Positions 9,371-15,078 of a stretch of DNA of 29,045 nt are shown here, piece after piece; the stretch's first letter is position 1, and each line of letters starts with the position of its first letter. This stretch comes from a virus (lineage: Duplodnaviria; Heunggongvirae; Uroviricota; Caudoviricetes), in the IMG/VR virus record IMGVR_UViG_2579778652_000007, positions 1-29,045 of that record; one strand, written 5' to 3'. Made by a program: the position numbers and the translations under genes. A model generated the notes under the pieces. The model saw only the letters and a list, made by a program, of their open reading frames with translations, made no database searches and was not told where the DNA came from.

Positions 9371-9616
9371 TTGGCAGAGCGTGTTGATGATGCAGAGCTG
9401 AGCATGAATCAGTTAGAAGCTCTCAAAGACATGGCCATCGATAACATCAGAAAGCAGGCACAGGTCGTGAGCCAGGTATTTACAGGGAAGTGTCGTTACT
9501 GCAATGAATCGATTGAATCAGGCATTTATTGTGACGCTGAATGTGCGCAATGGCACAGGGAAGAGCAGGCTGCAAAACAGCGTAAATATGGCATGCGACC
9601 GGCAGGATTTGACTGA
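9371..9616 (+). CDS. Small zinc-finger protein (four-Cys, TraR/DksA-like spacing uncertain)
   Basis: TTG start with GAGG 8 nt upstream (alternative in-frame ATG at 9404); CRYC...CDAEC motif. Confidence 0.5.
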   Translation: MAERVDDAELSMNQLEALKDMAIDNIRKQAQVVSQVFTGKCRYCNESIESGIYCDAECAQWHREEQAAKQRKYGMRPAGFD

Positions 9617-9618
9617 TT

Positions 9619-10197
9619 ATGTTGCGCTTTACTGAGGAAGAGTTTCAGGCTTTTAGTGAGCGTCGAAATAAGGGGCGGTCCAGGCCAAAAACCAAAAAGG
9701 ATCCATTCTTATCGCTTGCGCCGGTAAAAGAAGTTTCTCCACATGCGAAGGCACTTGCAGCACTGGCAAAGAACCCCGACCTGCGCGACGGAAATTGCGA
9801 GCACTTCGAGCAGGTTTTCATTTTTGATTACTTCGAACGCAAGCACCCTGACATCTATGAGCTGTTGCATGCAACGCCTAACGGAGGGAAACGTTCAAAA
9901 GCAACCGCCGGGAAAATGAAGGCTGAAGGGCAGAAAAAAGGTTATCCGGACATGAGTCTCGATAAAGCATGCGGTATTTATCACGGCATGCGAATTGAGC
10001 TTAAAGAACCAAATGGTAAAGCCCCGACGAAAGAGCAGATCGCCTGGATGCGCAGGCTTAGAGAGGAAGGTTACTACGTCGTTCTTGCGTATGGTGCAGA
10101 ACAAGCGATAACCGCCATCCTGGAATACATAAGCCTTAAAAAGGGTGAGGCTATTGAGCATGTATTGAACGGCGACAAGTGGTTGTATGCTACGTGA
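9619..10197 (+). CDS. VRR-NUC domain nuclease (PD-(D/E)xK superfamily)
   Basis: 192 aa; HATPNGGKRSKATAGKMKAEGQKKGYPDMSL...IELKEPNGKAPTKEQIAWMRRLREEGYYVVLAYG matches VRR-NUC core. Confidence 0.75.
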   Translation: MLRFTEEEFQAFSERRNKGRSRPKTKKDPFLSLAPVKEVSPHAKALAALAKNPDLRDGNCEHFEQVFIFDYFERKHPDIYELLHATPNGGKRSKATAGKMKAEGQKKGYPDMSLDKACGIYHGMRIELKEPNGKAPTKEQIAWMRRLREEGYYVVLAYGAEQAITAILEYISLKKGEAIEHVLNGDKWLYAT

Positions 10198-10263
10198 AAT
10201 AATAAATTAATTAGTGCATGTGTGCTCTTTGATATAGCGCACATTAACATCGGGAGAATAATC

Positions 10264-10419
10264 GTGTCATCCAAGGCTAATTATGAATCGCTGGCATCGA
10301 TCATGCCGCGTAATGAACAGGAAGCAGATGCTGTAGTGGACCCGGTAATCGCTGAAATGAATGCTCGCCTGGAGGCTGAATTTGCAGCTGAGAATGAACA
10401 TACCACCCAGGGCGACTAG
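10264..10419 (+). CDS. Small hypothetical protein (start uncertain: GTG 10222, GTG 10264 or ATG 10303)
   Basis: ORF-track ORF 10222-10419; RBS GGGAG 7 nt before GTG 10264; acidic, no motif. Confidence 0.3.
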   Translation: MSSKANYESLASIMPRNEQEADAVVDPVIAEMNARLEAEFAAENEHTTQGD

Positions 10420-11023
10420 GACTGTTTTTTGTGTCGGTAGCGGTCCGTCACTCACTCGTGAGGACTGTGCTGCTATAGAAAAAACTGGCTGTTCAATCAT
10501 CGCGGTTAACAATTCCTGGCAGATGTTCGATGACATTTATGCCTTATACGCCGGTGATTTGTCATGGTGGAAGCAATACGGATCCACCATACCGGGAGGG
10601 AGATTCCGCAAAGTGACAGCCAACCTGGCGGCGGCGAAATCATTTTCGTTGGAGTACAGGCGATATTGTGGACCGGCTGAAGGGGTTAATAGCGGCGCGC
10701 AGGCTATCAGTCTGGCGGCTGAATCAGGGGCTGAAGTAGTTGTATTAGTCGGCTATGACTGTTCTCTGCAAAACGGCCTTCATTGGCATGGAGCACACCC
10801 TCAAGCCCTACGGAATCCAACGCAGGTGTCTATTTCAAAATGGCAACAGCAGTTCCTGGATACCCGCAAAAAACACGCAGATTTACATATTTTGAATGCA
10901 AGTAGGAGCAGTGCAATTCAATGTTTCCCAAGAATAAATTTAGAGGCAGTGATCGCGTTATTATCGTCGGCAGTGGCCCAAGCGCCGCAAACTTTGTTGC
11001 GCCGCGCGGAGTGCCGATTATAG
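10394..11023 (+). CDS. Sialyltransferase-fold (GT42/DUF115-like) glycosyltransferase-like protein, paralog A
   Basis: VFCVGSGPSL, IIAVNNSW, SGAQAISLAAESGAEVVVLVGYDCS resemble GNGPSL and sialyl-motif of CstII/Maf-type enzymes; start could be ATG 10361; 3' end overlaps paralog B by 103 nt. Confidence 0.6.
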   Translation: MNIPPRATRTVFCVGSGPSLTREDCAAIEKTGCSIIAVNNSWQMFDDIYALYAGDLSWWKQYGSTIPGGRFRKVTANLAAAKSFSLEYRRYCGPAEGVNSGAQAISLAAESGAEVVVLVGYDCSLQNGLHWHGAHPQALRNPTQVSISKWQQQFLDTRKKHADLHILNASRSSAIQCFPRINLEAVIALLSSAVAQAPQTLLRRAECRL

Positions 11024-13220: not shown

Positions 13221-14483
13221 ATGAGCACTTCAGCACAAAACCAATCAATCGAAAATGTATCTATCCCTGATGTCCTGAATGCCGGTATCCCGGCCATTAT
13301 CCAGAACATCCGGGCCGCGCAACGCCGCGTTAGTTGTGATGACCTCACAGCACGTTTTTTTGATAATGCGGTTCAGTCAGCGGAGATGCTTCACGCACAG
13401 CTTATTGATGTTTATAACGCAGAAGCTGATAGCCATAACTCCCTGGTAGATGCAGCTGAAAATATGCAGTTGGATCTCGGTCTGAAGGGTAAAGAAATTG
13501 AAGAGCTTCAGCTGCAAATTGAACATTTGAAACGCCAGCAACAGGACGCGATCGACGATGCGACGCATGACGCCAACCAGCGTGCTGATAATGCCGAACG
13601 TATAAGCATTGAGCTGGAAACAAAACTCAATGAAATGACCGCGATGGTTGAACTGCGGAACTTACAGATTTCAACGCTAAAATCTCAATATAAAGAGATC
13701 ATGAAACTTGATCCTTTTAACCTTGAGAAACGCTATAACAAAGCTAAAAGCGAGCGACAGGAACTGCGTAAGCAGGTCGCCGACCTTAACCAACAGCTCA
13801 AAAAAACTATTAAAGATGCAAGCGAAGCGCGCGTGGCATTTGCTAATAAAAAAGCAGAGGTTACCGCGCTGGTTAATGAGAATGCCAAATTTGCGACGCT
13901 CAAGAAGGAAATGTATGGCATTACTGAGCGCCGTTTCCCTGCAAGCAAACTTCATCCGACGTTAGGGCAAATCTCCTTCTTCCCGCGCCTCCTGGCTTAT
14001 GGGATCTCATCGCCTAAAGAGTTCAATAACGAGCGTCCTTATATCGTTTCTAAGCTGGACTTTGCTTATCAGTTCTGCTGCGACATGGGCTATGCCATTG
14101 ATATCCGGATCAACGAATGGTTGATGCCAAACTTCCAGCCGTTGGCCATTTTCCGCGAGTTCCAGCCGGAAGGTTGGGTAGAGTTCTTCCATGAATTGAT
14201 CTGTAAAGAGATGGAAAGCCGCCGCCCGGAACTGGTCCGCCGTGTCGAGTGGGCGCAAGAGGTTATGTTGGCAGATGCAGAGCTGCCGTTCGAACCGGAA
14301 TTTATTGATGATCTGGCAGCTAAAGGGCTGCATACCCTGTTTGATGTGGTTACCCGCCGTCATGAGCAGTTGGTTGTCGAATTGGGTTTAGAGGAAACAG
14401 CGGCAAGAAGACTTCTCGATGTTTGCTATGCACGTAGCGATGCATGGGAAAAAGAGAACGGCGGCACTATTTACGTTCGCTGA
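13221..14483 (+). CDS. Hypothetical protein with long N-terminal coiled coil and distinct C-terminal domain
   Basis: 420 aa; residues about 60-230 heptad-like and charged (ELQLQIEHLKRQQQDAIDD...); C-terminal 190 aa Trp/Phe-rich. Confidence 0.75.
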   Translation: MSTSAQNQSIENVSIPDVLNAGIPAIIQNIRAAQRRVSCDDLTARFFDNAVQSAEMLHAQLIDVYNAEADSHNSLVDAAENMQLDLGLKGKEIEELQLQIEHLKRQQQDAIDDATHDANQRADNAERISIELETKLNEMTAMVELRNLQISTLKSQYKEIMKLDPFNLEKRYNKAKSERQELRKQVADLNQQLKKTIKDASEARVAFANKKAEVTALVNENAKFATLKKEMYGITERRFPASKLHPTLGQISFFPRLLAYGISSPKEFNNERPYIVSKLDFAYQFCCDMGYAIDIRINEWLMPNFQPLAIFREFQPEGWVEFFHELICKEMESRRPELVRRVEWAQEVMLADAELPFEPEFIDDLAAKGLHTLFDVVTRRHEQLVVELGLEETAARRLLDVCYARSDAWEKENGGTIYVR

Positions 14484-14503
14484 CAGTTACAGTGTCACTT
14501 TTA

Positions 14504-14537
14504 ATGCTGGTGGAGTGCGCCCACCAGCATTTTTTTC
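14504..14537 (+). terminator. Rho-independent terminator
   Basis: ATGCTGGTGG-agtgcgc-CCACCAGCAT followed by TTTTTTT, 21 nt after stop at 14483. Confidence 0.85.
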
Positions 14538-14555
14538 GTCCAATGAGGAGGGCAT

Positions 14556-15062
14556 TTGAGTATTTTCAATAAACACGCACACCAGGAACGTCCGTATATC
14601 GTCATAGTTGATATTGATGGAACAATATCAGAGGCAACTGAAGACAGACTGCATTTGCTTCCGCCACCAGGTAAAGGTGCATTAACAAAGGACTGGAACG
14701 AGTTTAATCTCGCCTGTGACACCGATACTCCCATCACTCCAGTTATTGATATGGTGCGCCAGTTATTTAACGTTTACACGGTCTGGTTTGTAACCGGGCG
14801 CTGTGAGATCGCAAGGGATAAAACACGAGCCTGGCTGCGGAAGTACGTAACAAACGGGGCTGAGCCTTTGCTATCTATGCGTCCTGCCACCGATGACAGA
14901 AATGACGGCCCAGCAAAGATTGATCTCCTTAAGAAAATTGGTCTAAGTAAAATCGCGTTCGCGCTGGAAGATAAGATTGAAGTGGCGCGTGTTTTCAGGA
15001 GGCACGGCGTGCTTACGTTAATGGTCAGGGAGTATGAAAACGCGCTTCTCCATCAACAATAA
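14556..15062 (+). CDS. HAD-superfamily phosphatase (DxDxT; P1 Pap-like by family and position)
   Basis: TTG start with GAGGAGG 5 nt upstream; N-terminal IVIVDIDGTISE (DxDGT motif). Confidence 0.7.
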   Translation: MSIFNKHAHQERPYIVIVDIDGTISEATEDRLHLLPPPGKGALTKDWNEFNLACDTDTPITPVIDMVRQLFNVYTVWFVTGRCEIARDKTRAWLRKYVTNGAEPLLSMRPATDDRNDGPAKIDLLKKIGLSKIAFALEDKIEVARVFRRHGVLTLMVREYENALLHQQ

Positions 15063-15078
15063 TTGCTCTAATAAATAT
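15062..15078 (+). promoter_or_regulatory. C1-operator-like 17-mer ATTGCTCTAATAAATAT (16/17)
   Basis: Overlaps last base of the HAD phosphatase stop; precedes the accessory cassette. Confidence 0.6.

Follow-up and report, generated by a model that had tools for sequence, protein, structure and literature searches.

We analysed a block of ten genes at positions 9371-15078 of a 29,045-nucleotide stretch of DNA from a virus of the class Caudoviricetes (IMG/VR record IMGVR_UViG_2579778652_000007, positions 1 to 29,045; the whole stretch is called the window below), and in particular three of these genes, pmgO, pmgP and pmgQ, whose products are predicted glycosyltransferases. In a megablast comparison with approximately 50,700 phage records, the block aligned over 100% of its length with positions 78602-84307 of phage P1 at 98.1% nucleotide identity, and with phage P7 at 98.4%. 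It was complete in 19 P1-like phage records, including P1, P7, SJ46 and RCS47 (identity 97.8-98.7%), and phage D6 had ppp alone in common with it. The window genes correspond one to one to those of the GenBank and RefSeq annotations of P1, in the order pmgL-pmgM-pmgN-pmgO-pmgP-ppp-pmgQ-pmgR-pmgS-pap, with all ten open reading frames (ORFs) on the + strand. Protein identity to P1 was 97-100% for nine of the genes and 48/51 residues (94%) for the 51-residue PmgN, and no frame was disrupted. P1 (pmgL-pmgS, ppp and pap) and P7 (upf81, hdmA-D, ppp, shtA-B and pap) agree with the window in gene content, gene order and C1 operators of this block, and differ from it there by point substitutions only. 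The block is the conserved pmgL-pap core block of a P1-type (Punavirus) phage-plasmid.

The original prediction, made from the letters of the sequence, described the block as a co-oriented and mostly overlapping set of ORFs, and this was fully borne out: all ten were found on the + strand at the positions given. The overlaps amount to 103 nucleotides for pmgO/pmgP, 19 for pmgP/ppp and four for ppp/pmgQ, and the remaining starts and stops overlap or nearly abut. The same prediction called novelty unproven; a novelty of the block did not stand, because the block is part of the conserved P1 core named in 2004. Because of this identity to P1, the glycosyltransferase-like labels present in RefSeq and the single deletions made of its genes, described as having no plaque phenotype, we rate the pmgL-pap block as an already known object. 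The P1 annotation gives the pmg genes a "putative morphogenetic function". In P7, pmgN-Q are hdmA-D ("head morphogenesis"), and the likeness of HdmB (PmgO) to orf7 of Pseudomonas phage D3 was already recorded there. RefSeq, via PHROGs, labels PmgO "alpha-2,3-sialyltransferase", PmgQ "glycosyltransferase", PmgM "VRR-NUC domain-containing protein" and Ppp "metallophosphoesterase".

The first two genes of interest, pmgO (10361-11023, +) and pmgP (10921-11547, +; 206/208 residues identical to P1), code for predicted glycosyltransferases of 220 and 208 residues, respectively. Both proteins contain the GSGPS motif, as originally noticed. When the two families were compared with hhalign, with the PmgO-PmgP fusion protein left out of the PmgO alignment, PmgP matched the PmgO profile with a probability of 98% (E 2.5e-13, 164 columns), and PmgP had an extra inserted segment of about 35 residues. 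On this profile evidence PmgP is a genuine PmgO paralogue. The fold of the two proteins is the one common to Maf, MptE and CstII; the best structural match of PmgO was Maf, and pyrophosphokinases were also among its structural neighbours. With the Pfam model MptE-like (PF01973, cut-off 34.6 bits) PmgO scored 23.4 bits and PmgP 21.0 bits, both below the cut-off, and a natural fusion of the two (P0171) cleared it with 44.6 bits; several homologues carry precomputed PF01973 matches. WaaZ of E. coli K-12 (L089 5346-6197, -), a protein of lipopolysaccharide (LPS) core biosynthesis which we take to be the transferase of the third 3-deoxy-D-manno-octulosonic acid (Kdo) residue, KdoIII, matched the same model over residues 1-195 with E 6.9e-7, which places it in one superfamily with Maf, CstII, PmgO and PmgP. 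A direct hhalign link between the PmgO profile and WaaZ was tried and rejected (a weak partial match, probability 6.9%), and the superfamily link is based on the MptE-like match instead.

The two proteins had been described as tandem sialyltransferase-fold paralogues of GT42/DUF115-like type. The paralogy and the fold were confirmed and the DUF115 superfamily is the likely one, but no significant similarity to GT42 was found. GT42 enzymes such as CstII and Cst-I have a related fold; the profile similarity to GT42 entries of the Protein Data Bank (PDB) reached only E 0.14-0.7 (0.14 for CstII) in two short motifs, and no equivalent of the catalytic histidine could be placed. Thus, the label "alpha-2,3-sialyltransferase" is over-specific. 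Single PmgO, PmgP and PmgQ sequences gave nothing significant against the PDB, and neither did the PmgP profile. We assign PmgO and PmgP to the MptE-like/DUF115 superfamily, with Maf as the closest relative; they are neither Maf proteins nor demonstrable members of GT42. Maf flagellin glycosyltransferases (PDB 5mu5 is one) are multi-domain proteins of about 600 residues with flanking domains, encoded near flagellin and nonulosonic-acid biosynthesis genes, whereas PmgO and PmgP are single-domain proteins without such flanking domains and have phage genes as neighbours. The PmgO family is large: after clustering at 50% identity, 3,763 cluster representatives match at E<=1e-10.

The third gene, pmgQ (12218-12919, +), codes for a protein of 233 residues, predicted to be a GT8-like retaining glycosyltransferase of the GT-A fold. 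The fold itself is GT-A, closest to GT8 structures. LgtC, WaaJ/WaaO, glycogenin, GlyE and the Skp1 alpha-galactosyltransferase share 13-16% identity with PmgQ, which is shorter and forms a phage-borne family of its own. The FYLDLDTV (DxD) and HGKPRP motifs quoted in the original prediction are present, and the DxD, GDQG-type and C-terminal histidine motifs of PmgQ align with the DxD, GDQG and HFxGxxKPW motifs of glycogenin and their equivalents in the Skp1 enzyme. Among 46 homologues D79, L80, D81, D149 and P211 were invariant, and G148, Q150, H208 and G209 were conserved in at least 90%. The family comprises 136 database proteins at E<=0.001 and 565 stretches of viral contigs. For both enzyme types, the closest relatives of solved structure include glycosyltransferases that act on proteins, namely Maf, the Skp1 galactosyltransferase, glycogenin, GlyE and a capsid glycosyltransferase of chlorovirus PBCV-1.

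Outside P1-like elements, in many unrelated phages and prophages, the only genes of the block that co-occurred were pmgO, pmgP and pmgQ, in the arrangements O-P-Q or O-Q, and in none of the non-P1 loci examined did ppp, pap, pmgM, pmgL or pmgS stand beside them. In a distant P1-like relative (L049), pmgP and pmgQ were adjacent, without ppp. This limited co-occurrence indicates that the conserved functional unit is pmgO-(pmgP)-pmgQ, and that ppp, pap and the other genes are juxtaposed with it in P1. The arrangement of the unit varies from phage to phage. PmgO-PmgP-PmgQ lies between the lysis cassette and terminase in a Citrobacter rodentium prophage (phage phiNP), and directly behind the major capsid gene in a Pseudomonas prophage. 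An Ochrobactrum prophage has the order capsid, connector-like protein, PmgP, PmgQ, head completion protein, and an Onishia (Onishia/Halomonas) prophage has capsid, PmgO, PmgQ, connector. Further genes are interposed in E. coli phage EP_H11 (PmgO-PmgP-GT1-PmgQ) and in an Alloalcanivorax prophage (PmgP-methyltransferase-PmgQ-PmgO).

The members are also found fused to each other or to other enzymes. A fused PmgO-PmgP protein (P0171) is followed by PmgQ on a metagenomic phage contig, PmgQ is fused to PmgO in another locus (L065 7989-9251), and PmgO to an O-methyltransferase in a third protein (P0391). The genes in or beside the cassette include glycan-tailoring types, namely FkbM, TylF and class-I methyltransferases and glycosyltransferases of families GT2 (at least five) and GT1, as well as a sulfotransferase, a PIG-L deacetylase and a hexapeptide acyltransferase. 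Reading the three genes as a phage-encoded glycosylation system, as first proposed for the whole block, is reasonable on the sequence evidence, and we consider it very probable that PmgO, PmgP and PmgQ form a functional glycosyltransferase cassette. We found no earlier description of a mobile, sometimes fused O-P-Q cassette that typically lies just after the major capsid gene together with sugar-tailoring enzymes.

To describe the genomic surroundings we took 44 non-P1 loci, of which approximately 38-40 had upstream sequence, and scanned two same-strand ORFs on each side, and the ORFs within the cassette, against Pfam. Within two ORFs upstream, 14 loci had the capsid family Phage_capsid (PF05065), and a Gp13-like capsid protein, Phage_cap_E and a lambda-D-type decoration protein were found once each. 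A capsid family was thus present in 16 loci, or 17 with the decoration protein counted, of the roughly 38-40 informative ones. Downstream, a head completion protein was present in 14 loci and a gp6-like head-tail connector in 10. In phage D3 the PmgO homologue (orf6.5/orf7) directly follows the major head gene orf6, and a methyltransferase is encoded further down the head-tail module. A scan of species-representative bacterial genomes with the PmgQ alignment found homologues in Proteobacteria and further diderm groups and hardly any elsewhere, and in 11/69 of these bacterial-genome loci PmgQ came after a capsid gene and a PmgO or PmgP detectable by BLAST.

Several further observations concern the relatives of PmgO. 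The homologue in Pseudomonas phage PAJU2, ORF010 (L087 4974-5543), is encoded within the head-gene cluster and was deposited as a "structural protein", and in a protein of 556 residues (P0309) a PmgO domain is fused to immunoglobulin (Ig)-like Big_1/Big_13 domains, a type common on virion surface proteins. Some members of the family may hence be virion-associated, given this label and this fusion. D3 orf12 and PAJU2 ORF011 were considered as hidden PmgQ proteins and discarded (hhalign probability 0.2%). In both P1 (pmgN) and D3 (orf6.5, L086 4837-5124), the beginning of the PmgO gene is overlapped by a small ORF read in a different frame, and in about ten other loci an ORF of about 80-115 residues separates the capsid gene from PmgO; no mutual sequence similarity was detected among these small ORFs.

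The remaining genes of the P1 block belong to varied families. The pmgL gene (9371-9616, +) codes for a DksA/TraR-like C4 zinc-finger protein of 81 residues, 81/81 identical to P1 (phrog_54, DksA-like zinc finger, E 1.6e-12). The product of pmgM (9619-10197, +; 191/192 residues as in P1) is a nuclease-like protein, putatively of VRR-NUC type, much as in the original prediction: PmgM reached 21.2 bits with the Pfam VRR_NUC model, short of the cut-off of 23.8, and covered only the C-terminal half of the model. The protein belongs to phrog_5702, "Holliday junction resolvase" (E 4.8e-27). The pmgN gene (10264-10419, +; 51 residues, phrog_2350) overlaps the start of pmgO. The two phosphatases named in the original prediction, a lambda-type Ser/Thr enzyme and a HAD enzyme, both cleared their Pfam cut-offs. 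Ppp (11529-12221, +), whose gene separates pmgP from pmgQ in the P1 lineage, is the lambda-type Ser/Thr (metallo)phosphatase, with 59.2 bits for Metallophos (cut-off 21.5) and membership in phrog_246 (NinI-like); its calcineurin-like domain is homologous to lambda PP and PrpA/B, and its score of 279 bits with NCBIfam PRK11439, below the equivalog cut-off of 326, makes it a homologue and not an equivalog. Pap (14556-15062, +; 168 residues, phrog_415) is a HAD phosphatase of the polynucleotide-kinase 3'-phosphatase (PNKP) type, with 46.5 bits for HAD_PNKP (PF25109, cut-off 27.6); because the protein is short and has the phosphatase domain only, with no kinase domain, it is not a full Pnk. Between them lie pmgR (13001-13219, +), coding for an essential head-completion and head-tail joining factor of 72 residues (72/72 as in P1), and pmgS (13221-14483, +; phrog_1660), whose product of 420 residues (417/420 as in P1) has an N-terminal coiled coil and gave only weak, SMC-like coiled-coil matches. 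No transmembrane-like segment was found in any of the ten proteins.

We scanned the whole window with the P1 C1-operator consensus ATTGCTCTAATAAATTT, allowing up to three mismatches, and obtained six matches, compared with 0.14 expected by chance; four of the six fall on annotated operators of this block. Five operators are annotated for this region in P1, of which four are identical in the window and one has a single changed base. O26/Op82 (9297-9313, -) is identical to P1 and has two mismatches to the consensus. Oppp/Op83 (CATGCACTAATTAATTT; 10204-10220, -), also identical to P1, lies between pmgM and pmgN, so that pmgN-O-P-ppp-Q has its own C1-controlled promoter. OpmgRa/Op86a (12921-12937, +) and OpmgRb/Op86b (12970-12986, -) are both identical to P1 and match the consensus, and OpmgT/Op88 (15062-15078, +) has one mismatch to P1 and one to the consensus. 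The operator-like sites pointed out in the original prediction, at 9297-9313, 12921-12986 and 15062-15078, coincide base for base with the annotated Op82, Op86a/b and Op88; the inventory was incomplete, with Op83, the LP26/LPpmgL promoters and pmgN missed. These divergent late promoters, which share a -22 box, map to 9254-9282 from the P1 annotation (locus positions 2884-2912), with 2/29 bases different. The annotated -10 element of LPpmgL reads ATAATT in the window and AATATT in P1, a change of two adjacent bases. In the P1 annotation, the operators Op82, Op83, Op86a/b and Op88 give the block at least three units under separate control.

Beyond the block, two more consensus matches lie at 24961-24977 (three mismatches) and 28268-28284 (two mismatches). 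The part of the window downstream of pap (15079-29045) is not P1-like throughout: its best match was Salmonella phage SJ46, with 78% coverage, and many pieces match Shiga toxin (Stx)-converting or lambdoid phages, with HNH endonuclease, ea22-like, DUF551 and adenine methyltransferase genes. From 15079 on we see a known variable region, of the SJ46/RCS47 type instead of the P1 pmgT-V genes, which are replaced in many P1-like phage-plasmids. In a survey of 77 P1-like phage-plasmids, pmgR and pmgS were among 21 extremely conserved genes, and the variable region began only downstream, from pmgT.

Single deletions of every one of these genes have already been made. The in-frame deletions by Gonzales et al. 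2022 (PMC9024508) cover, among others, pmgN, pmgO, pmgP, pmgQ, pmgS, ppp and pap. Infectious virions were lost in 5/29 single-gene knockouts, within the block only for pmgR, whose deletion left heads and tails unjoined; the other deletions in the block plated normally and behaved normally towards EcoA, EcoB and EcoK restriction (PMC9024508). A CRISPR interference screen (PMC10695390) found the block non-essential, except for pmgN, which conflicts with the dispensability of this gene by in-frame deletion. Natural disruptions of pmgQ also exist: in one P1-like element (L047, 6490-8501) approximately 1.3 kb is inserted after codon 70, in another (L048, 8001-8698) the frame is shifted near codon 115, and in phage records ON470617.2 and ON470615.2 the pmgQ matches are split into two to three pieces. 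Such disruptions are consistent with a dispensable gene. Our literature search found no paper that gives PmgO, PmgP, PmgQ or PmgS a biochemical function. The original prediction was to be given up if the proteins proved to be conserved P1 core genes of known function. Half of this holds, in that the genes do belong to the conserved core; the other half, a known function, does not.

From the conserved motifs, the folds, the co-occurrence, the fusions and the synteny with capsid genes we infer an enzymatic activity, donors and an acceptor for the cassette. PmgO, PmgP and PmgQ would be three soluble cytoplasmic enzymes, two of them transferases of the Maf/WaaZ/CstII superfamily and one a GT8-like retaining hexosyltransferase. 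Because it is flanked by C1 operators, the cassette would be silent in the lysogen, and during lytic growth it would be expressed from C1-controlled and Lpa-dependent late promoters. Ulosonic acids activated with cytidine monophosphate (CMP) are the donors of the characterised transferases in this superfamily, namely Maf, CstII and, by assignment, WaaZ, and by this family analogy PmgO and PmgP may use them too. To our knowledge CMP-Kdo is the sole such donor in E. coli K-12, which would make it the obvious candidate; for PmgQ the donor is most likely a hexose activated with uridine diphosphate (UDP-hexose). From these host nucleotide sugars a short glycan would be made on a virion protein, most plausibly one of the head. 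That the cassette, expressed in lytic growth, builds such a glycan on a virion protein, probably of the head, we regard as close to an even proposition, though slightly short of it, and we name a virion protein as the acceptor only tentatively, with somewhat less than even confidence. The decoration would be dispensable for plaque formation, and a dispensable surface decoration would explain the lack of plaque phenotypes; the absence of a plaque or antirestriction phenotype in the single deletions fits it. We read the P1 region as a mosaic of independent functions and not a single pathway, with ppp, pap, pmgM, pmgL, pmgS and pmgR as neighbours of the cassette and not its partners.

A number of observations speak against a glycan on the virion. 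In P1 itself the cassette lies away from the capsid gene (gene 23), in the neighbourhood of the baseplate genes 26/25 and of pmgR/pmgS. Only 18/80 D3-like capsid loci contain PmgO, and the position behind the capsid gene could be just a tolerated or permissive insertion site. A Ser/Thr-rich C-terminal tail of the capsid protein was considered as an acceptor signature and discarded, since such short tails (for example GPLTGSGS and GPLVTP) occur equally in phages without the cassette. The 3.2 Å cryo-electron microscopy study of the P1 head, connector and baseplate (PMC12810830) contains no mention of glycans, a preprint on the P1 tail and baseplate likewise leaves them unmentioned, and in the literature we found no report of a glycan on any P1 virion protein. 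The paper on the P1 virion proteome (PMC9024508) likewise mentions no glycans, and its main text does not name PmgO, PmgP, PmgQ or PmgS. As to the enzymes, the pairing of a WaaZ-like with a GT8 enzyme is also that of LPS core synthesis. PmgQ matched no Pfam family at E<=0.1 and missed Glyco_transf_8 (PF01501), for which the control WaaJ scored 215 bits; of the GT8-like assignment first proposed for PmgQ, the GT-A fold and the motifs held, but membership in this Pfam family did not.

The main alternative is that the cassette modifies the LPS core or another envelope glycan of the host during lytic growth. By adding Kdo or hexose it could mask the P1 receptor, the LPS core glucose, and so lower superinfection or the loss of progeny on debris. 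The receptor of P1 is the LPS core; PmgO and PmgP are in the superfamily of WaaZ, with the weak hhalign match and a faint WaaZ_KDO_III match on a fused homologue pointing in the same direction; the homologues of PmgQ are nearly confined to diderm bacteria; and the enzymes are soluble and cytoplasmic, like the core glycosyltransferases. We nevertheless hold this modification of the host envelope to be unlikely. The P1 genes lie behind C1 operators and a late promoter and are off in lysogens, and late remodelling in a lytic cycle of about one hour would alter little of the existing outer membrane. In other phages the capsid and connector genes enclose the cassette, and starts and stops overlap there; neither this place nor the regulation is usual for genes of lysogenic conversion, and the accessory O-methyltransferases and sulfotransferase are unusual for core modification. 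It is more doubtful still that PmgO and PmgP are no glycosyltransferases and are instead pyrophosphokinase-like or other small-molecule enzymes, or non-catalytic and possibly virion-associated binders of sugars or nucleotides, so that the cassette would serve to produce or bind some small metabolite and would decorate no protein. Their Pfam matches are to MptE-like and below the cut-off, pyrophosphokinases are among the structural neighbours, and the "structural protein" label of PAJU2 ORF010 and the Ig-like fusion of P0309 would suit such a role. Against it stand the constant partnership, or fusion, with a bona fide GT-A enzyme and the frequent GT2, GT1 and sugar O-methyltransferase partners, and a virion-associated PmgO would sit poorly with its going unmentioned in the main text of the virion proteome paper (PMC9024508).

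Glycosylation of phage DNA, of nucleotides or of a host defence molecule would make the cassette an anti-defence system. P1 does carry other anti-defence cargo (the Dar system), and the families of the nuclease-like PmgM and of the PNKP-type 3'-phosphatase Pap have nucleic acids as substrates. Most known DNA glucosyltransferases have the GT-B fold, P1 DNA is cut normally by restriction enzymes, and a search with PADLOC returned no defence relatives, only spurious matches of the PmgS coiled coil to LmuB. As the cassettes of other phages lie among head genes, and not among genes of replication or nucleotide metabolism, and as the deletion mutants showed normal EcoA, EcoB and EcoK restriction behaviour (PMC9024508), we regard an anti-defence role as very improbable. 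Equally little, or slightly less, can be said for one integrated glycosylation and phosphatase system of seven genes spanning the whole 5.7 kb, the module of the original prediction. In its favour, the genes all run in one direction with little space between them, ppp sits inside the cassette and shares start/stop overlaps with pmgP before it and pmgQ after it, and P1-like elements keep the block as a unit. Elsewhere only O, P and Q stay together, pmgP-pmgQ of L049 lacks ppp and phage D6 has ppp alone; the separately regulated units of P1, at least three in number, and the distinct, essential role of pmgR in joining heads to tails also argue against it. The comparative data thus largely refute such a system, and of the proposed module it is the three glycosyltransferase-like genes that remain together.

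Returning to the virion-glycosylation cassette, we compared it with the systems in which virion glycosylation is documented. Capsid and tail glycosylation in mycobacteriophages and the capsid glycosyltransferases of chlorovirus PBCV-1 involve enzyme families different from those of pmgO, pmgP and pmgQ, which are found in phages of Gram-negative hosts. Glycosyltransferase genes stand next to capsid or other structural genes in many homologous cassettes (D3, L090 and L091 among them), but not in P1. For phages of Gram-negative bacteria, a literature search on DUF115, sialyltransferases and glycosylation of capsids brought up nothing relevant. The genomic context of the cassette, together with the analogy to mycobacteriophages and chloroviruses, makes virion glycosylation in Gram-negative phages a testable hypothesis. 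In its fullest form, in which pmgO-P-Q is the P1 copy of a very widespread, undescribed virion-glycosylation cassette of Gram-negative phages that combines ulosonic-acid transferases of Maf/WaaZ type with a GT8-like hexosyltransferase and places glycans, possibly containing Kdo, on the capsid or another virion protein, we consider it possible but doubtful.

As a sequence feature, the pmgL-pap block is ordinary, and its interest lies in the function of pmgO, pmgP and pmgQ. The comparative result makes the function of these "putative morphogenetic" genes testable on the existing P1 deletion mutants. If the proposal is true, the virions of P1 and D3, both classic phages, are glycosylated and this has so far escaped notice. 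Virion glycosylation, if confirmed, would extend to Gram-negative phages a phenomenon documented mainly in mycobacteriophages and giant viruses, and it would matter for how the immune system recognises therapeutic phages and for vectors based on P1.

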